64,000 bases of DNA from Acidobacteriota bacterium (GCA_016211085.1 JACQSY010000016.1:20501-84500); one strand, 5' to 3'; positions 14,939 through 37,487 are shown, counted from the stretch's first letter. The notes: generated by a model not told the origin, from the sequence alone. Program-made: numbers and translations.

Positions 14939-15063
14939 CCAGCCATGGGTAGGATTGAGATGCCGCGGAGGCGGAGGAGCAAAGCGTACTGTAGGCCTTT
15001 ATAAGTTGCGGTATTTAAGTCCCTTGCCTAGGTCGGGCCTTGGGAGTATTTTGCCGTAAATTT

Positions 15064-15093
15064 TTGTGAGAAATTTGTGTCGAGTGGTATAGT
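15064..15093 (+). promoter_or_regulatory. candidate sigma70-type promoter of the sdh operon
   Basis: TTGTGA (15064-15069), an 18-nt spacer, then TATAGT (15088-15093), lying 20 nt upstream of the ATG at 15114, with GGTGG as a possible SD. Pattern match only. Confidence 0.3.
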
Positions 15094-15113
15094 GTGCGCT
15101 CGATAGGTGGTCT

Positions 15114-17663: not shown

Positions 17664-18407
17664 ATGGTTCAGGAAGAAGGAAGACAAATAACCGTCCGGA
17701 TACTGCGGGGAGAAGGCGTAAAGACGCAGGAAGTCGAATATCAGGTTGCGGTGGAGCCTGGTTGGGTGGTTCTGGATGTTGTGCTGCACATCCAGGCGCG
17801 CATGGCTCCCGATCTGGCAGTGCGTTGGAACTGTAAGGCCGCCAAGTGCGGATCGTGCAGTGCGGAAGTCAATGGCAAGCCGCGCTTGATGTGTAAGACG
17901 CGGCTCGACGATCTGGATCTCACCAAACCGGTGGTGGTTCATCCCATCAAGACGTTCCCGCGCATCAAAGACCTGGTGACCGATGTCTCCTGGAATTTTG
18001 AAGTCAACAAAAAGATACAACCCTTTACGCCAAAAAAGGACGCAGCCTTTATTTACTTCCAGGAAGACATCGATCGCGTCCAGGAAATGCGAAAATGCAT
18101 TGAGTGCTTCCTTTGTCAGAATGTGTGTCATGTGCTCCGCAATCGCGAACAGTACCAACGATTCGTGGGCCCACGGTTTTTTGTGCGGCTGGCAGGATTG
18201 GAGATGCACCCGCTGGACGATGCGGACCGACTGAAGCAGATTGAAGAGGACGGCATCTTTCTTTGCAACATCACCAAGTGTTGCACCCATGTTTGTCCGG
18301 AAGACATTCACATTACCGACAACGCGATTATCCCCTTGAAGGAACGCGTGATCGACAAAAGCTACAGCTTCTGGAACTGGGTTTTGCAGCCTTTTTCATC
18401 CAAATAG
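17664..18407 (+). CDS. sdhB: succinate dehydrogenase/fumarate reductase iron-sulfur subunit
   Basis: Three cluster motifs: CKAAKCGSCSAEVNG, CIECFLCQNVC and CTHVCP. Start taken at MVQEEG behind GAGGAGAAGGAA (track ORF starts at 17631). Confidence 0.9.
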   Translation: MVQEEGRQITVRILRGEGVKTQEVEYQVAVEPGWVVLDVVLHIQARMAPDLAVRWNCKAAKCGSCSAEVNGKPRLMCKTRLDDLDLTKPVVVHPIKTFPRIKDLVTDVSWNFEVNKKIQPFTPKKDAAFIYFQEDIDRVQEMRKCIECFLCQNVCHVLRNREQYQRFVGPRFFVRLAGLEMHPLDDADRLKQIEEDGIFLCNITKCCTHVCPEDIHITDNAIIPLKERVIDKSYSFWNWVLQPFSSK

Positions 18408-19623: not shown

Positions 19624-19627
19624 GCGT

Positions 19628-21061: not shown

Positions 21062-21151
21062 GGAGGAGTGGCCGAGTGGTTGAAGGCGGCGGTCTTGAAA
21101 ACCGTTAGGGGTTAACGCCCCTCGTGGGTTCGAATCCTACCTCCTCCGCCA
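21062..21151 (+). tRNA. tRNA-Ser (anticodon UGA), CCA encoded
   Basis: Hand-folded. Acceptor GGAGGAG/CTCCTCC, anticodon loop CT-TGA-AA, long variable arm AGGGG-TTAACG-CCCCT, T arm GTGGG-TTCGAAT-CCTAC, discriminator G, then CCA. Confidence 0.9.
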
Positions 21152-21152
21152 A
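21123..21152 (+). repeat. 30-bp direct repeat, left copy (attL-like; tRNA-Ser T-arm/acceptor/CCA)
   Basis: CGTGGGTTCGAATCCTACCTCCTCCGCCAA is identical to 35543-35572. Confidence 0.75.
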
Positions 21153-21367
21153 GTTGCGCGTTTTTCTTTCGCGTCATTCGGTGGCCTTTAAGTTGGGGAT
21201 TCCTCCCGTTCTCCTCCCTCGCCCCTGCAATAGCATTACCAAGGCTCGCTGTCCGGCAAACGCTGGAGCGAGCGTAATACTTTTCGGTTGTTGCAACAAA
21301 CGAATGTCCAAGAACTTCTCTCTCTCCCCACTGTGATTCAGTGGCAGAACGGCAGAGAGAGCTCTGA

Positions 21368-21944
21368 GTCTCAATCGCCTTTCGGCTCGGTCATCACTCC
21401 CTACGAAGCTAGCCAAGCCTATGACGAAGCTTACCAAGACTTGTCTCAATCGCCTTTCGGCTCGGTCATCACTCCCTACTCGTGACGTCGGTGCCGTTCT
21501 TCCCATCAGTACGCTGTCAGTTGGTCTCAATCGCCTTTCGGCTCGGTCATCACTCCCTACTCTTTGGGACGAGGCTAATCCCCAATTTCCCCCTGGGGAT
21601 TGTCTCAATCGCCTTTCGGCTCGGTCATCACTCCCTACGCTTGCCACGGGCAGAATGGCAATACGCCATCCTCTTAGTCTCAATCGCCTTTCGGCTCGGT
21701 CATCACTCCCTACAAACTCGCCTATGAAAAAGCTTATCAAGCTTGGGAGGCGTCTCAATCGCCTTTCGGCTCGGTCATCACTCCCTACTTGGCGGCCGGG
21801 ACCGCAGCATTTGGAAAAGTTGCAATGTCTCAATCGCCTTTCGGCTCGGTCATCACTCCCTACTTAAGGTTTTCAGGATTTACCAAAGAGCCCACCTTTG
21901 CTACCGGGTCTCAATCGCCTTTCGGCTCGGTCATCACTCCCTAC
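21368..21944 (-). CRISPR. CRISPR array, 8 repeats / 7 spacers
   Basis: Eight identical 37-bp repeats GTCTCAATCGCCTTTCGGCTCGGTCATCACTCCCTAC (plus strand) start at 21368, 21443, 21524, 21602, 21677, 21752, 21827 and 21908. Spacers are 38, 44, 41, 38, 38, 38 and 44 bp. On the minus strand the repeat ends ATTGAGAC, close to the canonical ATTGAAA(C/G) 8-nt crRNA tag, so transcription is inferred to run on the minus strand from the cas2 side. Confidence 0.95.
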
Positions 21945-22165
21945 AGCGGAGCCTGGAAAGTGCCAAGAAGCGCCCCTTTACAGGCCGGCTTCGGCGGCAC
22001 TGGTCTTATGCGCTGGCTAAGAGGAATTTCTGATCTGCTCATTCCCATCATTGTTGAGTTCCAGGTCGGCGGCAGAGGGCCCTTTTCGACCTTTTTCGTC
22101 TGCCGCCGAGCATCCGGCTCCCAAGCGACCTTTCGAAGAACTGTAGCATAAAAAAACGGGCAAGC
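21945..22165 (-). promoter_or_regulatory. putative CRISPR leader (between cas2 stop and first repeat)
   Basis: 221-bp non-coding gap on the cas2-proximal side of the array. It contains an 11-bp perfect inverted repeat, TCGGCGGCAGA...TCTGCCGCCGA (22066-22109). Orientation is inferred from the repeat tag. Confidence 0.5.
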
Positions 22166-22549
22166 TCACAGCATGTATAGTAGGGCGCTCTCCGGCCGGG
22201 TGGTCTTTCCCATCCCACTAATTCGCTGGACGCAGGCGCCACAGATTCGATAAACCAATATAGTATCTTCATCCGGCTCGATTTCGCTTGCAAGGTCACA
22301 CCATAATCTTGCAAACACCTCTTCACTCAGATCACATTCGAACACGCTGTACTCCACCCGGATACCGTAATCCTCACAGACCTTGGCTACGCGTCGCAGG
22401 CGCTTCGGATGTCGAATGTCGTAGGCAACCAGATGTAACATGTCTCGATACCGCATCTCCGCCGGGTTGAATTCGCCCAGCGAGTAACCGACCAGATAGG
22501 GATCGTCCTCAAAATTGCTGCTTGAATTCGGGGGAACTTCATCGCTCAT
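22166..22549 (-). CDS. cas2: CRISPR-associated endoribonuclease Cas2
   Basis: 127 aa. The core LHLVAYDIRHPKRLRRVAKVCEDYGIRVEYSVFECDL matches the Cas2 ferredoxin-fold pattern, with a ~35-aa N-terminal extension. Overlaps cas1 by 4 nt. Confidence 0.9.
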   Translation of the reverse strand: MSDEVPPNSSSNFEDDPYLVGYSLGEFNPAEMRYRDMLHLVAYDIRHPKRLRRVAKVCEDYGIRVEYSVFECDLSEEVFARLWCDLASEIEPDEDTILVYRICGACVQRISGMGKTTRPESALLYML

Positions 22550-23571
22550 GGCATTAGAAAGAATTGAAGATCCCGTTCACCTTCCATGCCCCGCAGCACT
22601 GTGGCGACGGAGCTCTCGATCACCCTTCGGAAATCTGTATGCGGCTGTCCTTTGGCCGGGGCAAATTGCCGCGACATGGTGGACTCATAGGTCGTGAAGA
22701 AAGTCTTTCGCGATTCCTCCTTCAAATAAAACCCGCCCTTTTCGGCGTCGAACCGGAAATCCGCCTCACTCAGAATGCGGTGATTTAGCAGGTTCAACAC
22801 CAATAGATCGCAGACCGGTGCTCGCAGCGGCTCCAGCAGGTCGAGCGCCAGCGAGGGCGTGCCGTGTTTAAGCCCATGCAAAAAGCCCAGGCAGGCATCC
22901 AGCCCATGCTTTCGCACGCAGCCCTCGATCTCTCCAAGCAGGATCGTATAGGACCAGGAAAGCAATGCGTTTGCCGCATCCTTCGGAGGACGTCGCGTGC
23001 GTCCGCCAAAGGGGACGTTTGGCGGGAAAAAGCAACCAAGGCGCGAAAAATAGCGGACCGCCCCCATTCCTTCGTATCCTCTCAGCTCCTCCAGAGTCCC
23101 GGCCTCCCGTGCGCGGGCTGCCAGTTGCTCCAGTTCCCGATCAACCTGTCGCTGCTCAGGTAAATGGGATTCGTCCCGATTGGCCGAGAGGCGCTGCAGT
23201 ACACGCCGGCTATTGCGCAGCTTGGCATAAACCAGCACCCGCGCCACTTCCAAGATGAAGGCAGCGTCATTTACCAACTCGTACTGGCGAACTCGCCTTC
23301 CCGCATTCTTGTTATTATCCGGACTGAGACTTCCCATCCAGCGTCCGCGCGAGGTCAGAAAGAAACAAGGAATGCCTTCGCGAAGCAACCCGTAGAGTAC
23401 GGGAAAAGAGATACTGGGTCGTCCAATGACAATGACTCGGTCCACGTCGATCAGAGGGACGCGCATCCGGGATTCCGGCTTCTTCCCCCACTCTACCCAA
23501 CGGATGACTTCAACGTGTCTGGAAATGAGCCGAACGCTGATTGTTTCACTTGAGATAACCAGACTGGCCAT
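22546..23571 (-). CDS. cas1: CRISPR-associated endonuclease Cas1
   Basis: 341 aa. Cas1 blocks RRPPKDAANALLSWSYTILLGE, GLDACLGFLHG and DLLEPLRAPVCD. No RT fusion. Confidence 0.92.
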   Translation of the reverse strand: MASLVISSETISVRLISRHVEVIRWVEWGKKPESRMRVPLIDVDRVIVIGRPSISFPVLYGLLREGIPCFFLTSRGRWMGSLSPDNNKNAGRRVRQYELVNDAAFILEVARVLVYAKLRNSRRVLQRLSANRDESHLPEQRQVDRELEQLAARAREAGTLEELRGYEGMGAVRYFSRLGCFFPPNVPFGGRTRRPPKDAANALLSWSYTILLGEIEGCVRKHGLDACLGFLHGLKHGTPSLALDLLEPLRAPVCDLLVLNLLNHRILSEADFRFDAEKGGFYLKEESRKTFFTTYESTMSRQFAPAKGQPHTDFRRVIESSVATVLRGMEGERDLQFFLMP

Positions 23572-23603
23572 ACACTTTCACTTCTTCCGTAAGCTGCTGC
23601 CGC

Positions 23604-24887
23604 TTATATCTTTAGAATCGGGAAACGCCAGAGATCGGACTCCCCGGCACCCAACAAATAGAGGGCATCCTGGAAAATCCCCTGAAAATTGGCTTCCCTC
23701 ATAGGTACAAACCCGTGCGCCAATATGGAGCGGTTGCGATCTGCCAGATGCCCCGTAAGCTGCTTTTGGATTTCCCGATAGCGGCGGCCCACCGGGTCCT
23801 GCAGTTCCGCGAGCAGCTCCAGCGCCTGAATTGCCCCGATGCGTACCTTGCGGGCCATGCCATCGGGAGTCTCCTCTATCTGCGTGTACCTACGCTCGTA
23901 TTCAGCTCTCAATTTGCCCGGTATCCGCTCCAGCCGGACATCACTGGTACTAATGCCATGTTGGGAAAGCTGGCGCTGGGCGGTTTTTTCGATCGCGGCG
24001 TAGCACCGGGCGACCGCATCCTCGTATTTCTGCTCCAATTCCGCGCGACGCAGCGCGTTGGCAAGGAGGTCATGGATGGCCTCCCAGGTGATCTCGCCCG
24101 GTTCGATGCCTTTCAAGGTTTGGGCCAGCTCCTGCACTTCATCTGCAAAAGGCTTGAGAGTGGGAGTGATCCAATGAGGCGTCTGGGCCAGGTCGCACAG
24201 CGGCTGCAGGTTTTTAAAAAGCAAATTTTTCGCCCCGCGGTGATTGAAGATATCCCACTGATAGAAAGCTTCAAATATTTCGCCGAGAACGATGTAAAGA
24301 CGCTTTGAATACTCGTCATCGACTCTGCTCCGGATGTGCCTGAGCAGACCGGCGGCGTTTCCGTACTGCCCCCGGTTGAATAGCTCCACCGCATCTCGCG
24401 CCTCGAGCCAGGCAATCCGGTTCCAGGGATTCTCCTGCCGGAACATCCTTTCCTTGCCCTCAATCACGACACCCAGACCTTCCTTCGTGCGGCCGGAGGA
24501 GTCGGGCGTCCCGATGTAGGCGACGCGGCAGGGATACCTAGAAGAAGCAAGGATAAGCGCGGCACTCATGGTCTTGGTGCCGGCCGTGTAATCGACCAGA
24601 TCAGGCCACTCCAGTTCTCGCTCTCCCAATCGGCGCAGCGCCCGGGGGACTTCGCGCAGCAGGGTGAAGACAGTTTCCCCAAGGTCTTGCTCGTCCTCCG
24701 TCACGATGAACTCGTGGTCAGGCAGACGTCCCGGATCCTGAAGCAAGGCAGGCAAAATCTCATCGGTCACAAGTCGCCGCGATCCAGGCGAGGTGAAAAA
24801 GAGAACCCGCTCGGCCCCATGCTGGCGAATCGAAAAGATGATCGGGCCGGGCGTTCCCCCGACGCTGATGAGAAGAGTGCTAGGCAT
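23604..24887 (-). CDS. csx1: CARF-HEPN protein (Csx1/Csm6 family, TIGR02710-like), predicted cOA-activated RNase
   Basis: N-terminal Rossmann-like CARF (MPSTLLISVGGTPGPI...DYTAGTKTMSAAL) and a C-terminal HEPN R-x4-H motif (DRNRSILAHG). Start taken at ATG 24887 behind GGAGCGAAGGG (track ORF starts at 25055). Overlaps the upstream stop by 8 nt. Confidence 0.8.
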   Translation of the reverse strand: MPSTLLISVGGTPGPIIFSIRQHGAERVLFFTSPGSRRLVTDEILPALLQDPGRLPDHEFIVTEDEQDLGETVFTLLREVPRALRRLGERELEWPDLVDYTAGTKTMSAALILASSRYPCRVAYIGTPDSSGRTKEGLGVVIEGKERMFRQENPWNRIAWLEARDAVELFNRGQYGNAAGLLRHIRSRVDDEYSKRLYIVLGEIFEAFYQWDIFNHRGAKNLLFKNLQPLCDLAQTPHWITPTLKPFADEVQELAQTLKGIEPGEITWEAIHDLLANALRRAELEQKYEDAVARCYAAIEKTAQRQLSQHGISTSDVRLERIPGKLRAEYERRYTQIEETPDGMARKVRIGAIQALELLAELQDPVGRRYREIQKQLTGHLADRNRSILAHGFVPMREANFQGIFQDALYLLGAGESDLWRFPILKI

Positions 24888-26130
24888 AACCCTTCGCTCC
24901 TGTAATGCCGCCTCCGCTTTGCGCCTGAAAACGGGCGCTGATCTGGTCGCCGATAAGAAGTTCCACACCAAGGGATTCCGCCCAGTTGCGGTATTTTTCC
25001 TCTTCGTCTTCTCCGACCCGCAGAACGGCCAACATGGCCCGGGCGTGACTTCCACCGAGGGTCCTGGCGCGCTGAACGAGCGCCTCCATGTGTTCGAGGG
25101 GAGCGCGATTTTGAAGCGATTGCTTGCAGGAGATCACCAGCAACCTGCAGGCTACGCGGTCCACACAGACCACGTCGGTTTCTCCCAGCGCCCGGTCCTG
25201 TTGGCGTATAGGTTCGAGGCTCCATTGCATGTCGCCAAAGGCGGGATTACGATGCAGCAGGTCGACAACGAACAGCTCGAGCCACGATCCTTCAAGCAGA
25301 TTCGAAAGGGTTTCTAGCGCGCCCTTCAGGTCCCTTTTCTGTGAGGCCCGGCAGAAGGGAAAGAAGTTTCCACCCTCTTGTTTCAGCAGCCTGGCGGCTG
25401 CGGCAGCACAAAGAAATTCCAATACGGCACCGTCCCTAGGGGCGGGAAGTGGCTTCCTGACTAACTCGTCCAGCTTTTCGCGGCTTGCGGGGATCTTGCC
25501 CTCGTGGCAGCGGAAGTGACTGCGCAGCTGCCCTTCGAAATCAAGGAAGGCAGGCGTGGCTTTCAGTTTGAACGGCCAAGCCGCTCGCCCGAACTCGAGC
25601 TGCTCAGGTTCAATAGGTTTCGACCGTAGACTCCCCGGCTCCTGGCCATTCGCTGCAGCGATCAGCGACACGGTCAAATATTTCGAGAGCTGATCGAAAT
25701 CCAGGCCGTTTAAAGCGCCTCCTTCCGGAGCCCAGACGAAGCGGCGTCTCGCGCTGTCACAGTAAAGGGTCCGGACGTTGCGTTCGAAGGCCAGTTGGAA
25801 GGCGCCGACCGATATCATTTTGGTCCCACCGGTGTAGTTGAGGACGGTGTTTTCAGGGTCTGCAAACCAAGGGGCCAAATCGGCGTATACCTGGTTCACA
25901 GTCGGGTACTCCTCGCTCAATTCGTAATCGACGAAAGTGGGAGCATGTCCGCCAAAGTCGGGGTACGATTCAGCGAGGTGCCGCACGGCGGCTTCGATGC
26001 TTTCCAACTGCACCCGGTGCAAACCCCGGCTGCGCACCTGCACGATGCGGCCCGGCCGAAAAGCCATAATCGGCAGCAGGTTCTGCAGCGTCTGCTCGCT
26101 CACGAGGTGGATGAGGGTAAAAGCATTCAT
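24880..26130 (-). CDS. can2: CARF + PD-(D/E)xK-like nuclease protein (Can2/Card1, DUF1887 layout)
   Basis: N-terminal CARF (FTLIHLVSEQ...NYTGGTKMISVGA). The C-terminal restriction-endonuclease-like region is GSWLELFVVDLL...GETDVVCV...LLVISCKQ. ATG 26130 has a strong SD (GGAGGG, 6 nt upstream). The alternative GTG at 26193 overlaps the cmr1 stop (GTGA). Confidence 0.75.
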   Translation of the reverse strand: MNAFTLIHLVSEQTLQNLLPIMAFRPGRIVQVRSRGLHRVQLESIEAAVRHLAESYPDFGGHAPTFVDYELSEEYPTVNQVYADLAPWFADPENTVLNYTGGTKMISVGAFQLAFERNVRTLYCDSARRRFVWAPEGGALNGLDFDQLSKYLTVSLIAAANGQEPGSLRSKPIEPEQLEFGRAAWPFKLKATPAFLDFEGQLRSHFRCHEGKIPASREKLDELVRKPLPAPRDGAVLEFLCAAAAARLLKQEGGNFFPFCRASQKRDLKGALETLSNLLEGSWLELFVVDLLHRNPAFGDMQWSLEPIRQQDRALGETDVVCVDRVACRLLVISCKQSLQNRAPLEHMEALVQRARTLGGSHARAMLAVLRVGEDEEEKYRNWAESLGVELLIGDQISARFQAQSGGGITGAKGYA

Positions 26131-26189
26131 GAAGCTCCCTCCGTCGTGCTGCAACGCAACACGACTCGCCTGGAAGCGATGAGAACAAT

Positions 26190-27017
26190 TCACGCGAGGG
26201 GGATTCCCTCTCCGCCGATGGGCTTAGACGTCAGGAGCTTGAGCCCGTCGCCAGCTCGGTGGTCGTCCGGTCCTGGAAACCCGACGCGTAAGATCCAATA
26301 CGGCTTGCTTTCGTTAGCCAAACGAATGACCTTGAACTTGAGGGGTGATGATTGCCTTCCTTGCGACCCTGCATATCCCAATTTGCCTGTCCCGTCCATT
26401 ATTGTGTCACTGCAAACCCTTCTGGCTTCCTCAGGAGTGTCAAAGGGCGTCTTGAGCACGTCCATTAGTGCCTGCCACAACGGGCCGACAGATATTTCCA
26501 GGTCAAGCTTGAGCGCGGTTTCCCTGAGCTTTGACAGTTCGTGTCTCATGGAGTCGATAGACTGGGGTCCGTCAGCGGGCCAGACCGAGCCCGCGCCGCG
26601 GTTGGAGCGAAAACCTAGCCCACCCAGTAGGAGCCAGGTTCGCACGGCCAGCTTGGCCAGTTCGAAAAGCCGTTCAGGCTGACCTGGTCTGGAAGCAACT
26701 TGGATTGTGAACGTACCGTTGGCTGCGAGAGCCGGTGCTCTGAATTTTTTTGAATGGGGCAGGATTAGCTCCCGGCGCGCTTCCAGCACAGCATTCCTAA
26801 GCTGGAGCCCAACTGAGCTAGAGCGGTTTTCCGCTTCCTTATTGCCAGCAGAGCCAAAAACCTGGCTTTCCAGTTCCCGATTTGTACCGAGCGCGCGAAG
26901 CCACCAGCGCAGTTGGCCTCGGATGGAGGAAACACGGATTTCGGCTCGGTCGTTAGGATACGCTCCTCTGCAGAAGCACGGTGTGAGCAAGTCAATCTTG
27001 AATTCCTCAATTCTCAT
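26190..27017 (-). CDS. cmr1: type III-B RAMP protein Cmr1
   Basis: 275 aa. LLTPCFCRGA...EIRVSSIRGQLRWWLRA...VFGSAG...LLGGLGFRSNRGAGS is the Cmr1 N-domain pattern. It is shorter than typical Cmr1 and sits after cmr6 rather than before cas10. Confidence 0.8.
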   Translation of the reverse strand: MRIEEFKIDLLTPCFCRGAYPNDRAEIRVSSIRGQLRWWLRALGTNRELESQVFGSAGNKEAENRSSSVGLQLRNAVLEARRELILPHSKKFRAPALAANGTFTIQVASRPGQPERLFELAKLAVRTWLLLGGLGFRSNRGAGSVWPADGPQSIDSMRHELSKLRETALKLDLEISVGPLWQALMDVLKTPFDTPEEARRVCSDTIMDGTGKLGYAGSQGRQSSPLKFKVIRLANESKPYWILRVGFPGPDDHRAGDGLKLLTSKPIGGEGIPLA

Positions 27018-28348
27018 GACAAATCCACTCCCAGCACTTTGGCAGCTTCTTCGAGAGCCTCTAACCGCTTCCGATCCGGGCGGGTTCCGCTGCTGCGAAT
27101 GTTTTCCAGAATCGAACGCTTCGGGCCAATCAAAGTCTGAAGCAGGATGCGAATTTCCGGTCTCGAATAGTCGGTCCGGTGGCGCAATTCGTTGATCTTT
27201 GCCCGAATTTCATTGTCCGAGAGAGCAGAGAACTGGTTGACGCCTTGTTTAATTTCAGTTTCGGGCATCTCTTTCACTGCTTCCCGGCGACGTCTTGCAT
27301 CGGCTTCTTCCGCAAACTTCTGCTGCCGCTCTTCATCGGGGAGAAACCAGCCATAGCCGGCATTAGTTTTAGCGCCGATTCCGAACCATTTCAGTCCCTT
27401 CTTGAGCCAGTTCACGGCCTGATCATCTTGAGCGATCACGGCAAAGACAAAACTATTACCTGGGGCCACGGCCGGGAAGAAGATGACCGGGCCCGGGTCT
27501 TCCGTATCGGGGGCAACTTCAAAGTCGGGTTCACCCTGGTAGTACTTCTGATGGTGGCAAGTCAACACATCAAGTTCCAGCGAACAGGTCGCCGTCGGGT
27601 GGGCGGGGAGGAACTGCCCCCGCCCAGCAAAGTGGCCGAGCTGGCGATCGAAGTTCTCCGAAGAAAAGTCGTTACCGAACACCTCTTGCCAGAGACGTGC
27701 CTTGATCTCTCTGACAAACGTTCTGTTCCAGAGGCGATCCCCCAAGGCAAAAGCGAAATCTGAACGTTCCTTTTCCCAGTCCTGTTTGAAGTCTTCCTTC
27801 GTCTTCCAGTCCTGGGCTCCCCAGCCGAAAGTCAGGGCAATCTTGATCAACAGTTCGAGCTTCTGTTCATCCGGTGCGTCTAACAATTCCTGAATTGCCA
27901 TTCGACGAGCACAACCTTTGACGGCGCTTCCCGGAATGTAGGGTTCGCCAGAGAATCGGTCCAAGCAAAGCCCGGCATTCTCCATGACGCCTCCCGCCAT
28001 GTTGACCATCATGCGTGACTGGAGTTTGGCGAAGTAAAGACCTCCGTCAGGTACACCAAGGCGACCTCTGGGGCAGATGTCTTTGAGCCAGGACTGCAGG
28101 AAGATCTCGGCTTCGGAGTTCTTCTTGTCGAGAGCCGACTCAAAGAAATCCCTTCTCGCTTCGTTCTTCCAGTCTGGATTGGCATAGCGGTCCAGTGACA
28201 GAGAGCGTGAAGCACACTCAATGTTGTCGACTTTGCCCTTCCACTGGATCGCTCCTTGCGTATCCCCAGGTAGGTGGATTGAATAGTTTCTTTCGCCTTG
28301 CCCAGGCTTGTCTGGCCTCCTGGATTTCTGACCGCGATTGCCTGGCAT
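27014..28348 (-). CDS. cmr6: type III-B RAMP protein Cmr6 with an extra ~109-aa C-terminal helical extension
   Basis: Cmr6 blocks MVNMAGGVMENAGLCLDRFSGEPYIPGSAVKGCARR and the terminal G-rich loop FGIGAKTNAGYGWF. The protein then continues for ~109 more residues. Start at ATG 28348 (MPGNRGQ), 1 nt after the cmr5 TAA and behind AGGAGGAC. Confidence 0.85.
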   Translation of the reverse strand: MPGNRGQKSRRPDKPGQGERNYSIHLPGDTQGAIQWKGKVDNIECASRSLSLDRYANPDWKNEARRDFFESALDKKNSEAEIFLQSWLKDICPRGRLGVPDGGLYFAKLQSRMMVNMAGGVMENAGLCLDRFSGEPYIPGSAVKGCARRMAIQELLDAPDEQKLELLIKIALTFGWGAQDWKTKEDFKQDWEKERSDFAFALGDRLWNRTFVREIKARLWQEVFGNDFSSENFDRQLGHFAGRGQFLPAHPTATCSLELDVLTCHHQKYYQGEPDFEVAPDTEDPGPVIFFPAVAPGNSFVFAVIAQDDQAVNWLKKGLKWFGIGAKTNAGYGWFLPDEERQQKFAEEADARRRREAVKEMPETEIKQGVNQFSALSDNEIRAKINELRHRTDYSRPEIRILLQTLIGPKRSILENIRSSGTRPDRKRLEALEEAAKVLGVDLS

Positions 28349-28349
28349 C

Positions 28350-28748
28350 TTAGTCCTCCTCCCGCCCCTTCTTTTCTGACTTGACCGCAAATCGCTTCAG
28401 ATAAGCCAAGTACGCAAGGGCCTCATTGGTGGCCAGCCGCAATGCTGCTGAAGTTGATGTTTTACCACTTAGCTCTTCGATCATCCCCTTCGTGCCCTTC
28501 GTGTTCCGAGCGCCCTGAAGTCGTGCAATTTCGGGATCAAGGAGGTGCTGAACGATGGCATCCATAGCGATTTTCAGCTCGGGACTCTGCTTGCTCTTTC
28601 CCTCCGCGAACGCCGCGGCTGCTAGAAGGCCGTTATTGACAATCATGGCGGGAAGCCGGTCCACACCCTCTTTCTTCACAGGTTTCGAATTCCTGGAATC
28701 GGTTGCAACGAGTGCATTTCGTGCGCGAATCTGTTCGAGGTTCTGCAT
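28350..28748 (-). CDS. cmr5: type III-B small subunit Cmr5
   Basis: 132 aa, all-helical (MQNLEQIRARNAL...NGLLAAAAFA...ALAYLAYLKRFA). It sits between cmr4 and cmr6. ATG 28748 lies behind AAGGAGGGTGA. Track ORF starts at 28880. Confidence 0.8.
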   Translation of the reverse strand: MQNLEQIRARNALVATDSRNSKPVKKEGVDRLPAMIVNNGLLAAAAFAEGKSKQSPELKIAMDAIVQHLLDPEIARLQGARNTKGTKGMIEELSGKTSTSAALRLATNEALAYLAYLKRFAVKSEKKGREED

Positions 28749-28749
28749 T

Positions 28750-29649
28750 TCACCCTCCTTTTGGGTAATTGAGCGTGAAGGTGCACCAACCCAGGCCGGT
28801 TGTTTCATTGCCTCCGAGCTGGATGGCTTTTCCGTCCAGGGCACGCAGTTTAGACAGACTGCCAGCCGGGTTGTGCCCATTGATTTTTTGGCCGGCCATC
28901 ATCCCATAAAAGAGCGTCTCGGCGGGACAGTTCTCCTGGTTGAACAGGGCGCGGGCCTTTGCGGTTCCCGTGTCATCATCAATGGCAACGTGCTGGGCCA
29001 CTTCGCACGCGCTTTGAACGAAGAAGGAAAAGATGCCGTCAGGAACGATCACCAGGCGGTCTTTGAGCAGCTGCCAAACTCGCTCATTCTGAAGGATTTT
29101 GAGCAGGTGTTCTTCCCATTTCGCTCGAACATCGTCCTGGGCTGGAGGAGCAGCAGTGAAGGTGTACTCCTCCAGGACAACCTTCTTCTTCTCGGTTACC
29201 TTGGTCCCGGCGAGCACCGTGACGCTACCATCCTCCCCTTCCTGAACTGTGTCCAAGCCCTTCGCGGAAGGAAAATTATCAATCGTCACGTCTCGCGAGT
29301 AACGAGATAGCATTAGCGGACAAGTGATCCAGGCGAAACAACCTTTGGCTGAGCGCACCGGAAAGGCTAAAACACGTGCCTCTCCGATCAGCAAGGTTCC
29401 CGCATACGACTGGCTTTCGCCGTCGCTTGTAGCCTTTCCAAAGAGCATATCGGCGTCCGGCTTGAGCTCAGGGTGATCTCGAAGAACCCCCTTCAGCCCA
29501 CTTCCCGGTACGATCGGAATGCGCGTATGCGCTTCCCGTTGGATCGGCAGATCGATGTAACCGACCGATTGTCCGGCGCCCACGTGCAATGGCGTGCGAG
29601 TGAAAAGAAAATAAGGACATTGATCGGCGCTGTGTTCAGGCATTTTCAT
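28750..29649 (-). CDS. cmr4: type III-B backbone RAMP Cmr4
   Basis: YFLFTRTPLHVGAGQSVGYIDLPIQREAHTRIPIVPGSGLKGVLRD is the Cmr4 N-terminal motif, including the catalytic-loop Asp. C-terminal QLGGNETTGLGWC. ATG 29649 overlaps the cmr3 TGA (ATGA). ATG 29643 is also possible. Confidence 0.9.
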   Translation of the reverse strand: MKMPEHSADQCPYFLFTRTPLHVGAGQSVGYIDLPIQREAHTRIPIVPGSGLKGVLRDHPELKPDADMLFGKATSDGESQSYAGTLLIGEARVLAFPVRSAKGCFAWITCPLMLSRYSRDVTIDNFPSAKGLDTVQEGEDGSVTVLAGTKVTEKKKVVLEEYTFTAAPPAQDDVRAKWEEHLLKILQNERVWQLLKDRLVIVPDGIFSFFVQSACEVAQHVAIDDDTGTAKARALFNQENCPAETLFYGMMAGQKINGHNPAGSLSKLRALDGKAIQLGGNETTGLGWCTFTLNYPKGG

Positions 29650-30941
29650 TCCCCCTTTCCAAATTTGTCCATTTTTTGGTTTTCCCAGGTCCCGCACACG
29701 CCGAGACCCAGGCCTTTTTCCCCCAGGTAGTCGGAACGGCAGCGGTTTTGCAGTGCCGCCTGAAGCTTGAGGGTTTCTGCCTCGCTGTCGGTCTCAAAGT
29801 AGAAAACGGACCCAGCGGGTACGGCGAGGAAGGTAGGGCGGCCGCCACCTTTATTCTTTTTCTCATCGACCTCGGTTTCCTCCCGCAGCAATTCCCATCC
29901 GCTCATAACTCTTGGTTTGCCAATACAGGCAGCAACCAACCGAGCGCGGATCCTTTGAGCAGGATCGCTTGCTTCGTCGTATTGCCACCCCGCATCACGG
30001 CGTTGCCGTCGAAGAGCCCGGCGCGCATCCTTGTCGATGACGCGCAGCATGACCCTGCCGTCAGTTCCAATCCATCCCGGGTACCACCCATGGCTAAAAA
30101 TTGCCGGTATGACGAGCATCCATTTCAGATATTGGGTCGCAAGCTCAACCCTGGGTAGAACGAGATCTTCCGACACCCCTGCGATTCGTCCGAAACGCTG
30201 TTCGCCGCCAAGCTGCAAAATAGTACCGTCCAAGGAGTCCAACGTGACCCCGGCCTCCTTCATGTGGTCGGTCTTGTGGGCTGGTCGTTCGGCAACGGCA
30301 AACCGAAGCGACACTTTGTCGGCAAGCCGCAGATGTTCGGTCCCGTAAAGCTGACCCGGGACGGCTCCATGAGTCGCCGGGTTGATGGCGACTCCAATTC
30401 GGTGCTCGCGCCTCCAGAGAACATTCTCTATGGCAGGGATCGCATCTCCCGTTAAGTACTGTTGGAGCAAACCTGATGAAATCCAGTCCGGCTGTGGCTC
30501 TTTTGAAGGCTCCTCGAAAGAAGCAGGGATTTGCTGCAGAAAGCCACCTTGCAGGTTATCTAGGAATTCGCTTCCCTTCCCCTTTGGGCGCTCAATCAGC
30601 CGGAGAAACTCAAAGTCCCTACTTTTACTTTTCACCAGATCGCGCGGCGCTGGGAAAAAGAGCTCCTTGGCGTCTCGGACGGGAAATGGGCCGTGAAGGT
30701 GCAACCAGTCAAAAGCGGTTGTGCCCAACTTGCCGGGAACCCTCCCGTTTCGTGGAGTCTTGTCTTTATCTTTCTTGAGTGGAAGACAGTCCGCGTTCCG
30801 GAGGAGCGCGGTTCTCAATGCCCCGTGCAGCACGGTGGGCAGAGGCCAATTTGCTCCACGCCCGTAAACATTGCCCGCCGCAATAGGTCGGGCGTCTCGA
30901 ACGAATAGGGTATCGTTCGGCTTGAAATCAAATGTCTTCAC
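29646..30941 (-). CDS. cmr3: type III-B Cmr3 (Cas5-like)
   Basis: 431 aa. MKTFDFKPNDTLFVRDARPI...WPLPTVLHGALRTALL is the Cmr3 start pattern. The GTG start lies behind AAAGGAGGTGA. Confidence 0.88.
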   Translation of the reverse strand: MKTFDFKPNDTLFVRDARPIAAGNVYGRGANWPLPTVLHGALRTALLRNADCLPLKKDKDKTPRNGRVPGKLGTTAFDWLHLHGPFPVRDAKELFFPAPRDLVKSKSRDFEFLRLIERPKGKGSEFLDNLQGGFLQQIPASFEEPSKEPQPDWISSGLLQQYLTGDAIPAIENVLWRREHRIGVAINPATHGAVPGQLYGTEHLRLADKVSLRFAVAERPAHKTDHMKEAGVTLDSLDGTILQLGGEQRFGRIAGVSEDLVLPRVELATQYLKWMLVIPAIFSHGWYPGWIGTDGRVMLRVIDKDARRALRRQRRDAGWQYDEASDPAQRIRARLVAACIGKPRVMSGWELLREETEVDEKKNKGGGRPTFLAVPAGSVFYFETDSEAETLKLQAALQNRCRSDYLGEKGLGLGVCGTWENQKMDKFGKGE

Positions 30942-31312
30942 CTGTCACCTCCTTTTCGAATGAAACTGGCTGTCATCAATGGGCCGAGAAAGTCATCCAT
31001 GGAGCGTTTCTGTTGACAGCAAGTGTTGAGGTAACTGATCACTCGATCCTGCAACACTTTCTTTGTTTCCTGAAGCTCTGGGTATCCCGGATCGTGTGTC
31101 TGGAGCTTTTTGGAATGCCGATCCAGGGCATATTTGAATTCCTGCTCGATGATCTCCTGGGCCGGCCATCCCGCCGCGCCGAGTCGAAACGACTGCCCGC
31201 TTGAAGCAAGAGAGACCATTGGCTTCCGCACGTAGGGCTGAAGAACAGCCTGAAAGGCGTAGGGAAACCTCTCTCCGAGAGCATCTTCTGTTCGAGAGCA
31301 CTCTGGACCACT
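30938..31312 (-). pseudogene. cas10: cas10 C-terminal segment, readable only in the -1 frame relative to the main cas10 ORF
   Basis: This frame is open from 31312 down to TGA 30938-30940: ...DALGERFPYAFQAVLQPYVRKPMVSLASSGQSFRLGAAGWPAQEIIEQEFKYALDRHSKKL... Its stop overlaps the cmr3 GTG (GTGA) and it contains the cmr3 SD, as at the other junctions of the operon. Past ~31265 the main frame turns into low-complexity text and stops at 31039, leaving a 97-nt gap. Confidence 0.6.
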
Positions 31313-33945
31313 TCAAAGAGTTCGACGGCCCCTCCCTCCCACTTGGCCCCCCACTGCAGCACTTCACCGGATCGTTTCGCGAGATTCACCGCAAAGGCTG
31401 CCTTCCCGTAACCGTCTTCCCCCTTCGCCTTTTTCCCCGCCTCTCGAGCGGCAGCGATCAGTGCTTGCAGGGGTGTGTGCATGTGGCCCATCGCGATGCC
31501 AGCCGAGATCTCCGCATTGCGCCCCGGGACGACCAGGGGATAGCCTCGGGGGAGGTGCTTCTTCTCGAAACGGGACCACCCGTCCCACCCGCCATTCAGT
31601 GCCACGAAGCCCCAGTCCAGCGCCAAACCCTGCTCGTTCTCCTTCTGCAATACGCCGGGAAACACGTCGCGTAGACCTAAACCAGGGTCGCCAGGGTCGC
31701 CTCGAAAGGCCATGCGAAGAGCCGACGCGCAGGCAAATGCACTCCGGGCCGGCAACATCGCCAGGACGTCATCACCGCCTGCATAGATCAGTTGGCCGTT
31801 AAACCAATCAATAATTGGAGCAACTAGAAAGACGGCAAAGTTGCTGAGTGCCTCGCTGAATTGCAGGTGGTAACTCGGAGAGACATGCCTGGGCGCAGTC
31901 AGAAGAGGACGGAGCAAATCATTTCCATCGAAATATTTCCTTGCACTCTCAGCCAGCTGGCCGCCAAGTGGGGGCGTCTTCCCCCCGGACAGCCACTTTC
32001 CCATCGAGTCTCCGTCCATGGCCAGGACGGCGACGTAGCGCAAGGGTTTATCAATCTGTTTGTGCAGCTCTCGGAGTGCGTCCCGCGCTTTGCCTAGTCT
32101 GCGCAGGTTATCCTCATTGGCAAGCTCCGCGTTTCTAACGTCTCGAATCTGTCTTTCCCATTCGACGTCGTGAAAGGCGGCCGCGTCAGTTGTGTCCAGC
32201 CAATCGGCAAGACTACTTCCGAGGAGCCGGATGGCGGGAAAAAGATCGCTCGCGGCTGAGGCTGCATCAGCAAAGCGCCTGGCAAGCTCGTCGACTGCGG
32301 GTTCCTTGATGTTTTCCCTGAGTTTTTGAACCCACACACTCGCTGCGATCGCGGGAATGGAGTCAAACTGTACTCTTCTCCGCTTGAGCCCCCACGTTTT
32401 ATCCAGATACGCCAGATGCCAGATCCGCTTGATGAGGTTGAGCGCGCCCAATCGTTCCTTTTCATCGAAGAGAAACTTCGTCTTCAGTTTAGCCAGCCCC
32501 TTTTGCCATTCCTCACTTCCAATGACTTCTTCCTTCCCGGAGAACATGTCCTTGACAGCCCCCCTCCGGCTTTCGAACGAGCCCAATGCCCAGGGAGCGA
32601 AGTCCCGGGTATTTTTCCGGCCAGCCAAATAAAACTCCGTCAGGGCGTAATGAGCCGCCCAGGCGAATCCCGGGTTATCAATTACTGGAAAACCTTGCTC
32701 GTCAGGGATTATTTCGGAAAGCCATTGCCCACTCTCGGGATCCTGCCAAGCCCGATGTTTGTAGTTTCTGGCATCGAGATCGCTTTTGGGGATTCCTTCG
32801 CAGGCCGCCTTCACTCGGTGGCTGAGTGCATCTGCGGGCGGAATACGAGGCTCGTCGGAGAATTTCCCTGCTGAAGGGATCTGATGAAACAGGGATATGC
32901 TGGCATTTAGATCTTTCCACTCCCAAATCTGCCAATAGAACTGAAGAAACTGATCCAGTTGCTGACGCCATCGGTCCAATGCCTCAGTTTCAAGCGCGTG
33001 TCCTTTCTCTTCAAACCAATCGAGGCAGGTCGAACCGATGCGCTTCAGCTCTTCTAAGATCGCGCACCTGACCGAAGCTGCAAGCCCCCGAGCTCGGTCG
33101 GCATGCACAAGAGCGAGAAAACGGTTAGGGAAGTTGGGGGTAAGAATCTGCTCATCCTTAGGACGAATCTCTGACCACACGCTCTCGCCAAAAAACTCCT
33201 TATGCAGGAAATCAAAAAGTGGTCGCCTCCAGAGAGAAGGGAAAAGAACGGAGTCGGGACCCTCGCGATCGGCAATCTCTTTGAGTCCATGACACATCAG
33301 CCAGCTGAGCAGGTAACTGCCGCTCCAGCAGTCGCGAGTGGTGCGGGCCTGTTCAATGAAATCCTGCACGGGTCCGATTTCAAAAAGCAGGAAGGCAGGC
33401 TTCAATTCGCTGTCGTGTTGCCCCGTTTCATCCATTGCACACGCCTGAAGTGCACTGACGAGACTGCAGTGGGTCCAGATCGTGTGATCCGGAATGCGGG
33501 TATCCGCCGGCAGGAAAGCGAGGTGCGGGTCGGACTCTGCACAATACTGCGGCCAAAGGCGCCAGTGAAGAAAGAAATTCCGCTGGTAATCCTCGTCACG
33601 ACCCAGCATCTGCTGGTGTTTTGCCACCTTGTCTTCGGCATCGGCTTCACTGGCGATAGGTTGTGAGATCCGGAAGCGTCCCCCGCCCAGTGGATGGTGG
33701 AATATCTGCGTGTCGCTCCACTTGACGGCTAGGGCGCGCGGATTCGGAAACGCGATGCGATCTGCGCAGGCGGCCATTCTGTCCGCCTCCTTGTTCATCC
33801 GGCGGTTTGCCAGTTCCTCGGAGAGACCGGCCTGGGCGATCAACCCTTTTGCGATTTCCCAGTGTTCTCGGAGCGAATAAGGTTTATTCGGCGGATCATG
33901 TAAGAACGCCAGCAGTTTTCGTTTCCAGAAATCGGGGTTATTCAT
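31039..33945 (-). CDS. cas10: Cas10/Cmr2, type III-B large subunit (main frame; 3' end apparently frameshifted)
   Basis: N-terminal Cmr2 HD-type region (MNNPDFWKRKLLAFLHDPPNKP...HHPL...PADTRIPDHTIWTH). Cyclase/palm motif IYAGGDDVLAMLPA. Start at ATG 33945 behind AAGGAG (track ORF starts at 33987). Confidence 0.9.
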   Translation of the reverse strand: MNNPDFWKRKLLAFLHDPPNKPYSLREHWEIAKGLIAQAGLSEELANRRMNKEADRMAACADRIAFPNPRALAVKWSDTQIFHHPLGGGRFRISQPIASEADAEDKVAKHQQMLGRDEDYQRNFFLHWRLWPQYCAESDPHLAFLPADTRIPDHTIWTHCSLVSALQACAMDETGQHDSELKPAFLLFEIGPVQDFIEQARTTRDCWSGSYLLSWLMCHGLKEIADREGPDSVLFPSLWRRPLFDFLHKEFFGESVWSEIRPKDEQILTPNFPNRFLALVHADRARGLAASVRCAILEELKRIGSTCLDWFEEKGHALETEALDRWRQQLDQFLQFYWQIWEWKDLNASISLFHQIPSAGKFSDEPRIPPADALSHRVKAACEGIPKSDLDARNYKHRAWQDPESGQWLSEIIPDEQGFPVIDNPGFAWAAHYALTEFYLAGRKNTRDFAPWALGSFESRRGAVKDMFSGKEEVIGSEEWQKGLAKLKTKFLFDEKERLGALNLIKRIWHLAYLDKTWGLKRRRVQFDSIPAIAASVWVQKLRENIKEPAVDELARRFADAASAASDLFPAIRLLGSSLADWLDTTDAAAFHDVEWERQIRDVRNAELANEDNLRRLGKARDALRELHKQIDKPLRYVAVLAMDGDSMGKWLSGGKTPPLGGQLAESARKYFDGNDLLRPLLTAPRHVSPSYHLQFSEALSNFAVFLVAPIIDWFNGQLIYAGGDDVLAMLPARSAFACASALRMAFRGDPGDPGLGLRDVFPGVLQKENEQGLALDWGFVALNGGWDGWSRFEKKHLPRGYPLVVPGRNAEISAGIAMGHMHTPLQALIAAAREAGKKAKGEDGYGKAAFAVNLAKRSGEVLQWGAKWEGGAVELFEVVQSALEQKMLSERGFPTPFRLFFSPTCGSQWSLLLQAGSRFDSARRDGRPRRSSSRNSNMPWIGIPKSSRHTIRDTQSFRKQRKCCRIE

Positions 33946-34138
33946 CGGGTGCGTTCTCCTTTCGTTTCCTTTGCGGCTTCGCTCCAACCTCCCGACCTGC
34001 CCCGACGGGCGGCAAAGGTGGGTGACCAGCCCAGATGCCGGTCACGCCCACCTGGGGAGGACCGCCGCTCTCTGGCCCAGCGCTGGGTGGCCGGAGATGA
34101 TCCGATCTTAGCCGCCTTCGAAAACGGACGCTGGGTTT

Positions 34139-34158
34139 CTGACGTCCGCGGACGTCAG
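34139..34158. promoter_or_regulatory. perfect 20-bp palindrome CTGACGTCCGCGGACGTCAG (hairpin/operator candidate)
   Basis: Self-complementary over all 20 nt. It includes the TGA stop (34155-34157) of the CARF-wHTH gene and lies ~195 nt upstream of the cas10 ATG. A T-run follows it only on the plus strand. Confidence 0.4.
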
Positions 34159-35279
34159 GCTTTTTGCACGATTCGGAGCCGCTGCGCCGGAAAGCGCGGC
34201 AAATCCCCCTTCTTGAGATCGGGAAGCAGATCATTGACCCAGGACGGATCGTCGCCGGTCTTCCCCAGCTTGGCTCTCAGCGAGGAAGCCCACTTTCTCA
34301 CGTCGGATTTAACATCCAGGCGACGGTCCTTAAACTGGCAGAGCCACTCCGGATCGTTTCTTCGGTCCAATTCCTTTTGTCGGAGGGAATCGAGTTCTTG
34401 GCCTATTTCATGCCACGAGGACCACGGTCGGCCCGCTTTCAGCCGTCTCGCCACTATAAGCAGAAGCGCAAACTCGGCCTTCGTGACCTTGACCTGGCGG
34501 CCATCGATTTCAACGGTGGCCCTGGACTCATCGAGTATGACCTCCGGCATTTGCCTTTCGCCCAAAATCCCTTGGACCTGGTCGACGAGTGTGGAAAAGG
34601 AAGGGGGCAGATTTCTGAAGCGATCCCGATACAGCTGCCGGAGACGCACAAAAGGCACGTCGACCAGCTCGATTCGGGCGTCGACGGACCGAACTGCTAC
34701 GCCTGAATCCGGAATACGGTGAGTCATGCCCGGTTCGGGAAAGAGAAAAGGAGGCCTTAAATTTGGCGAGTCGTAGGGAGGATTGACGAGAACATGGCAC
34801 AAGAGGTCAACATGCGGCCTGGCCAGCAAAGTCATGCACGACGTCAGGAGGGCTGACATCGTCTTACGCCCGCCTGCCAGCGAGGCAATGAGCCGCGTCT
34901 CGGGATCCTCCGTATACCCGCGCAGGACGCGGAGAATAAAGTCCCCGGCCGCCCGGCTGTCGTGCGAACTCACTAAGTCTTCCAGTTCGCCGGTTTCGTC
35001 AGGCCTGGAAAAGACGCGAATGGAGTTGTTCGACGGGCCGAACCTGAGACGATTCTTAACCCCGAAGCCCTGGGAGGCCAAGTGCTTCAACAGCCGATTC
35101 CATCCTCCCTGATGAAAGAGCTTAGTACGGATCGCCTCCCTGCCGCTGGTCGTCGTGAGAACCAGCACCTCTTCGGGAATCAGCCGCCGTTCGACCGCAA
35201 GAGCCCAGACTGTCTCGGTGAGGATGGCCGGAGAGATTCCCATCACGGCCAGAAGCGTAGTCCTGTACGATTGAGCCAC
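34155..35279 (-). CDS. CARF-domain protein (NE0113/TIGR02584-like) fused to a winged-helix-like C-terminal domain; putative cOA-responsive regulator and/or ring nuclease
   Basis: GTG start. N-terminus TTLLAVMGISPAILTETVWAL plus LAGGRKTMSALLTS are the hallmark strands of this CARF family. The C-terminal ILDESRATVEIDGRQVKVTKAEFALLLIVARRLKAG resembles the OmpR/PhoB trans_reg_C wHTH. Confidence 0.7.
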   Translation of the reverse strand: MAQSYRTTLLAVMGISPAILTETVWALAVERRLIPEEVLVLTTTSGREAIRTKLFHQGGWNRLLKHLASQGFGVKNRLRFGPSNNSIRVFSRPDETGELEDLVSSHDSRAAGDFILRVLRGYTEDPETRLIASLAGGRKTMSALLTSCMTLLARPHVDLLCHVLVNPPYDSPNLRPPFLFPEPGMTHRIPDSGVAVRSVDARIELVDVPFVRLRQLYRDRFRNLPPSFSTLVDQVQGILGERQMPEVILDESRATVEIDGRQVKVTKAEFALLLIVARRLKAGRPWSSWHEIGQELDSLRQKELDRRNDPEWLCQFKDRRLDVKSDVRKWASSLRAKLGKTGDDPSWVNDLLPDLKKGDLPRFPAQRLRIVQKA

Positions 35280-35513
35280 GGGTTTACGTCCCCGTTTTCA
35301 AGTGTCCTATCACCGAGCCGTCGCAATTGCGCCCGAGAGGAAGCATTATGAGGCGCTGGACTTCGTGATCTGCAAGTTTACCTCGGGGATCAGATGGTCG
35401 ATCTCCAAGCGCCTTTGCAATTTCTGAACGAGCCTAACCGTGACTGCCTAGTTTCGCAAGCTCATCCAAGTATGCCGCAACTTCGGCAGATGTGCTAGGA
35501 TCGACCGCCTCGA

Positions 35514-35571
35514 CTTGAAAACCGCTGTACCCTGACGGGTACCGTGGGTTCGAATCCTACCTCCTCCGCCA
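35514..35571 (+). pseudogene. displaced tRNA-Ser 3' half (anticodon loop to CCA), attR-like
   Basis: CTTGAAAACCG (matches 21094-21104), an 18-nt different but self-pairing variable arm (GTACCC-TGAC-GGGTAC), then 28 nt identical to the tRNA T arm, acceptor and CCA. It has the same 58-nt length as the corresponding tRNA segment. No 5' half is present. Confidence 0.75.
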
Positions 35572-35572
35572 A
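35543..35572 (+). repeat. 30-bp direct repeat, right copy (attR-like)
   Basis: Identical to 21123-21152. Confidence 0.75.
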
Positions 35573-37246: not shown

Positions 37247-37487
37247 AATCGTTTCCTTTGTTCTGGGAAAATGCCGGATTGCGGGGCAGGACAAGTACCG
37301 TCCGGCCCGGACGTGATTCCCGGATACAATCCAGAATCAATTAGGCGCCAAGAGCCAAGCAAGTCTAAATGATGCTGAAAGGATCACACGAGTCTACGTC
37401 GGCCGTGATCCTGGACGCAAGAGAATTGAGAGTCGACCTGCGGGTCCCACCTCTGCACCGATTTCTACTTGTCTTATTTCACAGGGC

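Follow-up and report, generated by a model that had tools for sequence, protein, structure and literature searches.

A type III-B CRISPR-Cas locus (CRISPR, clustered regularly interspaced short palindromic repeats) lies in a 64-kb window of an uncultured Acidobacteria genome, between a tRNA-Ser(UGA) gene and a displaced copy of the 3' part of that gene. The window is the whole stretch of DNA that was analysed, and all coordinates are window positions. The tRNA gene, at 21062-21151 (+), is the only one called by ARAGORN in the window and scores 59.3 bits against the Rfam tRNA model; its 3' 58 nucleotides (nt) are copied on the same strand at 35514-35571. A CRISPR array of 8 repeats and 11 cas or accessory genes, the latter all on the minus strand, are all that the 14.4 kb in between hold, and the unassigned DNA of this island amounts to only 215 nt on the tRNA side and 234 nt on the fragment side. 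The features that bound the island, where attL and attR denote the left and right attachment (att) sites, are the following:

21062-21151, plus strand: functional tRNA-Ser(UGA), read as attL (ARAGORN, Rfam tRNA)
21094-21104, plus strand: left copy of an 11-nt identity block, CTTGAAAACCG, the candidate crossover region; the fragments of metagenome contigs L031, L045 and L058 have the same start
21153-21367, no strand: inner left end, non-coding, 215 nt; position of the integrase gene in related contigs
35280-35513, no strand: inner right end, non-coding, 234 nt
35514-35572, plus strand: displaced 3' half of tRNA-Ser(UGA), taken as native and read as attR (loop, variable arm CTGTACCCTGACGGGTAC, T-arm, acceptor, CCA and a further A)

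The first base of the fragment is the first base of the anticodon loop (CTTGAAA), which is a recognised crossover subsite, as are the T loop and the T/acceptor junction. The 11-nt block CTTGAAAACCG, made up of the anticodon loop and 4 nt of the stem, is identical at 21094-21104 and 35514-35524, and the T-arm, acceptor strand, CCA and one further A are 30/30 identical between 21123-21152 and 35543-35572. A 25-mer of this 30-nt block occurs exactly twice in the window at up to 3 mismatches, against 0 occurrences expected (100 shuffles). The 30/30 identity cannot date the event, because the T-arm/acceptor sequence is very widely conserved; its 28-nt 3' end is identical in the tRNA-Ser of three large phage contigs. 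Between the two identical blocks, the 18-nt variable arms of the tRNA and of the fragment agree at 5/18 positions and differ at 13/18, and both fold as a perfect hairpin of their own. No similarity to the tRNA 5' half was found upstream of 35514, and the fragment region, given to ARAGORN by itself, yields no tRNA call. These results confirm two statements of the preliminary description of this DNA, namely that the 3' 58 nt recur on the same strand as identical blocks lacking a 5' half, and that the variable arms differ while each keeps its own hairpin. The reverse complement of the fragment (35517-35568, -) also gave 31.4 bits (E = 0.003, below the gathering threshold) against the Rfam family RF04351, Plastid-psbl-rps4 3'UTR; this match was dismissed as not real, and the family probably overlaps antisense plastid tRNA-Ser.

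The two halves of the working gene have different affinities, and the chimeric tRNA lets the direction of the event be read. Its 5' half (21062-21093) is identical to that of four contigs, L051, L053, L065 and L069, the first two of which also share serS-gntR-add synteny with the window (57-74% protein identity to 11557-14938). The variable arms of L065 (TTGTACCCTCACGGGTAC) and of L051 and L053 (TTGTACCCTAACGGGTAC) are each 16/18 identical to the fragment arm. The variable arm of the working gene, TTAGGGGTTAACGCCCCT, is unlike them, and an identical arm occurs only in L029. Because relatives with the identical 5' half carry the fragment-type arm, comparison of the alleles identifies the displaced fragment as the native 3' half and the 3' half of the working gene, from 21094 on, as foreign. 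When 21062-21093 is joined to the fragment, a canonical 90-nt tRNA-Ser(UGA) is obtained, whose anticodon stem, with a G27-C43 pair, is fully Watson-Crick. A foreign working half together with a native fragment is what integration by crossover in the anticodon loop predicts. The suggestion that the two copies come from different tRNA-Ser alleles was borne out, and the direction has been added to it. The tRNA-Ser(UGA) of L029 (L029:82-171) has an A6-C67 mismatch in its acceptor stem and no integrase within 7 kb downstream; it may be another recombinant, of the attL type.

A metagenome scan for the tRNA 3' half returned 38 contigs. Fragments starting at the same nucleotide as that of the window were found in three independent, unrelated soil contigs, L031, L045 and L058. 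In L045, an intact tRNA-Ser is followed by a 2.45-kb insert and by a fragment that begins at CTTGAAAACCG and has 2 substitutions in the acceptor strand. Two further contigs, L054 and L059, have L045-like flanks on both sides (79-83% nucleotide identity), with the tRNA abutting the downstream gene and no insert. L045 and L054/L059 are a true occupied/empty pair in another soil lineage; the spans compared were L045:9886-12467, L054:1433-3068 and L059. The L045 islet holds an open reading frame (ORF) of 431 amino acids (10559-11854), for which no match was found in Pfam, PHROGs or NCBIfam, and an integrase remnant of 56 amino acids. In L058 the tRNA is followed by 1.7 kb and then by a fragment with the same boundary. 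In L031:1-6716 the fragment with this boundary is preceded by GASH, GAAD and metallophosphoesterase genes (NCBIfam anti-phage DS8/DS9-like), and a short integrase remnant lies just past it; the arrangement suggests tandem accretion at the L031 site.

A tyrosine integrase (PF00589) is encoded 54 nt downstream of tRNA-Ser in contig L026 (456-1307). Ten further loci have homologues of this integrase, or decayed pieces, next to tRNA-Ser genes or fragments, in L045 within the islet, so that integrase loss is common at this site. The loci of this family besides L026 include L028, L033, L035, L047, L055, L030, L034 and L058, and often only 20-60 amino acids are left; in L030 and L034 the remnant lies between the tRNA and a pyrroloquinoline quinone dehydrogenase, with no tRNA fragment left. 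The contigs compared indicate that integration into the anticodon-loop subsite of tRNA-Ser(UGA) is real and frequent in soil bacteria. The earlier attL/attR reading of the two tRNA copies holds, given the boundary at the anticodon loop, its recurrence in three contigs, the empty-site contigs matching L045 and the adjoining tyrosine integrase family. In viral contigs, a search for the phage-side site (attP) with a degenerate allele pattern found nothing, and the T-arm/acceptor matches turned out to be no att sites but full tRNA-Ser genes within phage tRNA arrays. The contigs L023, L024 and L025 (IMG/VR, 115-140 kb) have arrays of 10-16 tRNA genes, each including a full tRNA-Ser(UGA) whose last 28 nt are those of the window tRNA.

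Searches of Pfam and NCBIfam found no recombinase ORF among the 11 island genes, in agreement with the initial account of an array and 11 cas or accessory genes devoid of integrase, transposase and excisionase. Neither a relaxase nor a transfer gene was found among the island ORFs. The proposed check of the island ends for integrase remnants revealed none: the island has no tblastn match to the L026 integrase, and six-frame peptides of the ends have no Pfam match at E up to 10. No integrase was found within the 64-kb window. A weak tblastn match to the L026 integrase (E = 0.019, 19547-19759) was dismissed, being antisense within the coding sequences of the M20 peptidase and flavin adenine dinucleotide (FAD) monooxygenase genes of the left flank. 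The ends show no similarity to any of the other fetched loci; no arm-type repeats or motifs common to both inner ends, and no terminal inverted repeats, were found at them, and 21153-21367 contains no degenerate CRISPR repeat.

The island also stands out by its composition. Its tetranucleotide distance to the rest of the window is 0.092-0.094, the highest of all 14.4-kb sliding windows, compared with 0.028-0.076 for the low-overlap windows of this size, and its GC content is 56.5% against 54.6%. The comparison with the flanks that had been proposed finds in the island the most deviant 14.4-kb stretch of the window, with a modest signal. This composition fits a foreign origin. Leaving aside an identical database protein, the nearest homologues of Cas10 are about 50% identical and come mostly from Verrucomicrobia, whereas the flanking radical S-adenosylmethionine (SAM) gene has relatives at about 82%; this patchiness is in line with horizontal acquisition. 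The collections searched contained no close relative of the cas block; plasmids gave only cyanobacterial matches at 22-29% and phages gave none.

The array and genes of the island, from the tRNA side to the fragment side, are these:

21368-21944, minus strand: CRISPR array, 8 identical 37-nt repeats (GTCTCAATCGCCTTTCGGCTCGGTCATCACTCCCTAC on the plus strand) and 7 spacers of 38-44 nt
21945-22165, minus strand: putative leader between cas2 and the array, proposed from position only
22166-22549, minus strand: cas2 (TIGR01573, 55.4 bits, cutoff 24.5)
22546-23571, minus strand: cas1 (TIGR00287, 230 bits, cutoff 71.7)
23604-25055, minus strand: Csm6-type CARF-6H-HEPN effector (TIGR02710, 169 bits; PF09670, PF22205)
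24880-26193, minus strand: Card1/Can2-like CARF-nuclease effector (PF23400 CARF_Card1 and PF09002 Card1_endonuc, both just over cutoffs)
26190-27017, minus strand: cmr1 (NCBIfam TIGR01894)
27014-28390, minus strand: cmr6 (NCBIfam TIGR01898)
28350-28880, minus strand: cmr5 (NCBIfam TIGR01881)
28750-29697, minus strand: cmr4 (NCBIfam TIGR02580)
29646-30941, minus strand: cmr3 (NCBIfam TIGR01888, 79.8 bits, under the curated cutoff of 100.4, with a full-length model alignment)
31039-33987, minus strand: cas10/cmr2 (TIGR02577, 201 bits)
34155-35279, minus strand: NE0113-family CARF protein (NCBIfam: ring nuclease), the last gene before attR (PF09623; TIGR02584, 148.9 bits, cutoff 80.65)

The assignment to type III-B is based on NCBIfam equivalog matches for Cas10/Cmr2, Cmr1, Cmr3, Cmr4, Cmr5 and Cmr6 and on the associated array at 21368-21944. 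The cas and flanking proteins have identical database entries from an Acidobacteria metagenome-assembled genome, among which that of cas10/cmr2 carries the name type III-B Cas10/Cmr2. A Cas6 for crRNA processing is usually, though not universally, encoded in loci of this type; here no Cas6 model is matched by any of the 11 proteins, and the island has no ORF left unassigned. The locus is a type III-B system without cas6 despite its own array and cas1-cas2, and 'complete', the word first applied to it, is slightly generous in view of the missing cas6. Three different CARF proteins (Csm6-HEPN, Card1-like and NE0113) are encoded in this one locus. Because of an overlap with the neighbouring ORF, the Csm6-type gene probably has its true start downstream of 25055.

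Transcription of the array is probably from the minus strand, together with the cas genes, because the reverse complement of the repeat ends in ATTGAGAC and the array lies on the cas2-proximal side. All 8 repeats are identical, with no degenerate terminal repeat at either end of the array, and the repeat nearest to the tRNA directly abuts non-repeat DNA; a young array and a truncated one would both explain this. Spacers 1 (21405-21442) and 5 (21714-21751) have a homologous core, GCCTATGAcgAAGCTTAcCAAG in one and GCCTATGAaaAAGCTTAtCAAG in the other, and from this likeness a single gene, present in two related invaders, may be the source of both. Viral contigs contained no exact match to the core common to the two spacers.

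Three flanking genes are the following:

18328-19710, strand not stated: FAD monooxygenase, beyond the M20 gene
19628-21028, minus strand: M20/M25/M40 peptidase, left flank; a conserved host neighbour of the tRNA (Pfam PF01546/PF07687)
35639-37294, minus strand: B12-binding radical SAM gene, right flank (PF04055, PF02310)

The start of the radical SAM gene lies downstream of 37294, because the database protein has 535 amino acids. The wider flanks consist of housekeeping genes (serS, add and sdhAB on the left; molybdate transport, GlgP and GDH on the right) and contain no recombinase. Orthologues of the M20 gene at 56-58% identity were found in L064, L065, L066 and L069, and in 4/4 of these contigs the M20-FAD monooxygenase pair is accompanied by a divergent tRNA-Ser immediately upstream, so that the tRNA and the left flank have long formed a conserved unit. 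An M20 gene identical to that of the window is contained in the sequencing run SRR12113401. The radical SAM gene has many homologues at about 80% identity (up to 82%), with differing neighbourhoods, and no tRNA or fragment was found beside these relatives in L021, L022 or the P0003 context. The two flanks had been described as core genes: this is correct for the left one, which is conserved in four relatives, while on the right the radical SAM gene is conserved and its neighbourhood is not.

In GTDB genomes, a search for the empty site by way of M20 found relatives of only <=40% identity, and M20 homologues at 50-53% identity showed no synteny. The Logan contigs L001 and L069, assembled from two different sequencing runs, both stop at one and the same base of the anticodon (…GGTCTTG); this shared end is not interpretable as strain variation and probably reflects assembly-graph branching in conserved tRNA sequence. 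In L051 and L053, tRNA-Ser(UGA) comes directly after serS-gntR-add. In the window, serS-gntR-add is followed by 175 nt (14939-15113) containing GCGGAGGAG, and the tRNA lies 6 kb further on, beside M20; the window lineage and the L051/L053 lineage place tRNA-Ser(UGA) differently. GCGGAGGAG consists of the first 7 bases of the tRNA and the 2 bases upstream of it, and this 9-mer may be there by chance.

The explanation we favour, and hold to be probable, is a site-specific insertion mediated by a tyrosine integrase, which regenerated the tRNA and was followed by loss of the integrase, leaving an island with nothing but CRISPR-Cas. Within the anticodon-loop block CTTGAAAACCG, an element encoding the integrase would have undergone recombination with the tRNA-Ser(UGA) gene of the chromosome. 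Like tRNA-targeting islands in general, it would have brought along a tRNA copy of its own, running from the anticodon loop to the 3' end. In the resulting attL (21062-21151), the working gene would be composed of the host 5' half and the element 3' half, and the original 3' half of the host would have moved 14.4 kb downstream (attR, 35514-35572). The integrase module, usually located just downstream of the tRNA, would subsequently have been deleted; 215 nt of non-coding DNA and the distal array end now lie in its place. The surviving interior would be the type III-B module only: array, cas1-cas2, cmr1-6/cas10 and three CARF effectors. We infer that CRISPR-Cas was the cargo of the element because the island is so compact, and that the element had an integrase which later disappeared. 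A single recent event is favoured, without being proved, by this compactness, by the undecayed fragment and by the short perfect-repeat array.

Several points weigh against this history. The island ends yielded no integrase remnant, no arm-type repeat and no similarity to other elements, so that only the geometry points to the former integrase. No empty site, with M20, a native-arm tRNA-Ser and the radical SAM gene in succession, was found for this lineage: 4/4 syntenic contigs end in or at the tRNA, and the radical SAM relatives are non-syntenic. Mobility of the cas block is not directly demonstrable, because no collection searched holds a close relative. The compositional signal is modest (GC 56.5% versus 54.6%) and was obtained against a single 64-kb reference. 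Finally, the acceptor 3' strand of the supposedly foreign half agrees perfectly with the host, which needs a closely matched donor or later homogenisation.

Another explanation accepts the scar as real and has CRISPR-Cas acquired later, into or in place of a decayed earlier island, by homologous replacement or hotspot turnover. The sites downstream of this tRNA-Ser are indeed turnover hotspots: the L058 (1.7 kb) and L045 (2.45 kb) islets hold only integrase debris, defence genes are found in L031 and fragment-less integrase remnants in L030 and L034, and the island ends do not tie the cas block to any integrative element. However, two events and the near-total erasure of a first island, down to 215 and 234 nt, would be needed. 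The window fragment, with its perfect hairpin, T-arm and acceptor, is moreover almost undecayed, whereas that of L045 has two substitutions, and a short array of 8 perfect repeats fits a single recent event. We consider such a later acquisition unlikely, though worth keeping in mind. Alternatively, the block could be a still-mobile cassette without a recombinase, a true cis-mobilizable element (CIME), which would be excised and integrated in trans by an integrase specific for tRNA-Ser(UGA), encoded at another place in the genome or on an incoming element. Neither att site is damaged, the 11-nt core being identical and both tRNA 3' halves intact; integrases for this site exist in soil communities; and CIMEs, as well as their accretion with integrative and conjugative elements (ICEs), are documented (PMC5704250). 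Yet the window encodes no integrase, the two inner ends have no arm-type repeats in common, and no second copy or close relative of the cassette was met in any context searched, while the integrase debris in the other recombinase-less islets, L045 and L058, marks these as decay products. Mobilisation in trans is possible but without support, and we give this explanation little probability. The same low estimate applies to its extension, in which the att-flanked block is a functional defence cassette that moves in trans between Acidobacteria by means of tRNA-Ser(UGA)-specific tyrosine integrases on other elements. If this were true, the anticodon-loop site would be an integron-style docking point at which defence modules are swapped, CRISPR-Cas here and the GTPase-associated anti-phage genes in L031.

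Site-specific recombination would be dispensable if the fragment were the remnant of a second, tandem tRNA-Ser, whose 5' half disappeared through an unrelated deletion or when the cas locus inserted. tRNA genes can occur in tandem, and the variable arms differ as they do in paralogues. But the truncation point is the start of the anticodon loop to the nucleotide, as in L031, L045 and L058; at the M20 position, relatives carry a single tRNA-Ser(UGA), whose arm is of the fragment type and not that of the current gene; and the radical SAM relatives have no adjoining tRNA or fragment. A tandem origin is accordingly very improbable. Casposons insert near tRNA 3' ends, and the island encodes a Cas1, so that the repeat might be seen as the target-site duplication of a Cas1-driven, casposon-like element, or of a transposon, beside the tRNA. 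Such a duplication would have been identical when formed, whereas here 13/18 variable-arm positions differ, with compensatory hairpins. Terminal inverted repeats are absent from the island ends, neither a polymerase B nor a transposase is encoded, and Cas1 belongs to a normal cas1-cas2-array adaptation module. The island was rejected as a casposon on the inverted repeats, the polymerase gene and the non-identical middle of the repeat, and an origin of this kind is hardly conceivable. The boundary coincidence and the non-identical middle effectively exclude the tandem-tRNA and casposon-type explanations.

With integrase-mediated insertion and subsequent integrase loss as the favoured history, the interpretation first given to this DNA is partly supported as a whole. 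Its claim that the entire module arrived on an integrative element stands as far as the integration scar is concerned; the arrival of the cargo with the element is suggested by the compactness of the island. The locus offers a clean, nucleotide-resolved case, from a phylum that has been little studied, of an entire adaptive-immunity locus with integration scars at both ends. Site-specific integration has probably delivered a larger share of CRISPR-Cas and other defence loci than is currently estimated. In soil bacteria, the anticodon-loop site of tRNA-Ser(UGA) seems to be a hotspot used repeatedly by small, decaying islands that carry defence genes. Immune systems on genomic islands are already known, and current understanding is not overturned by this case.

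As in canonical type III-B (Cmr) systems, cas10/cmr2 and cmr1/3/4/5/6 are found here with an adjoining array, cas1-cas2 and CARF ancillary effectors. Unlike them, the island has no cas6, has three different CARF proteins and has a nearest Cas10 only about 50% identical. In Vibrionaceae, whole CRISPR-Cas loci, type III included, occur in tRNA-inserted islands or prophages whose GC content differs from that of the host (McDonald et al. 2019, PMC6360697). Those islands measure 26-62 kb, keep their integrases and carry other cargo (PMC6360697), whereas the window island is a 14.4-kb acidobacterial one, with CRISPR-Cas only and no integrase.

The island shares with those of Islander an intact tRNA gene and a cognate 3' fragment at its ends, on the same replicon, in the same orientation and on the 3' side. 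It further shares the start at the anticodon loop, a regenerated 3' half that differs from the native allele and is read as element-derived, and a deviant composition. In Islander, 2083/3919 islands have anticodon-centred attP sites (PMC4383910). It differs from them in having no integrase gene inside, and the Islander pipeline would discard it because its filters demand one (PMC4383910); finders that require an integrase miss such islands. CIMEs are decayed derivatives of ICEs or of integrative and mobilizable elements that have kept attL and attR and lost the integration and transfer genes (PMC5704250). The window island likewise keeps both att sites, with the 11-nt core and the 30-nt 3' block identical at the two ends, its integration and transfer genes are gone, and comparable islets with integrase debris exist in L045 and L058. 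CIMEs were defined in ICE systems of Firmicutes, where mobilisation by a related ICE was shown, whereas no helper integrase lies in the 64-kb window around this island; a prophage or a non-conjugative island is just as conceivable as its parent element. We conclude that it is best described as a decayed, att-flanked, recombinase-less, CIME-like element in the sense of PMC5704250.

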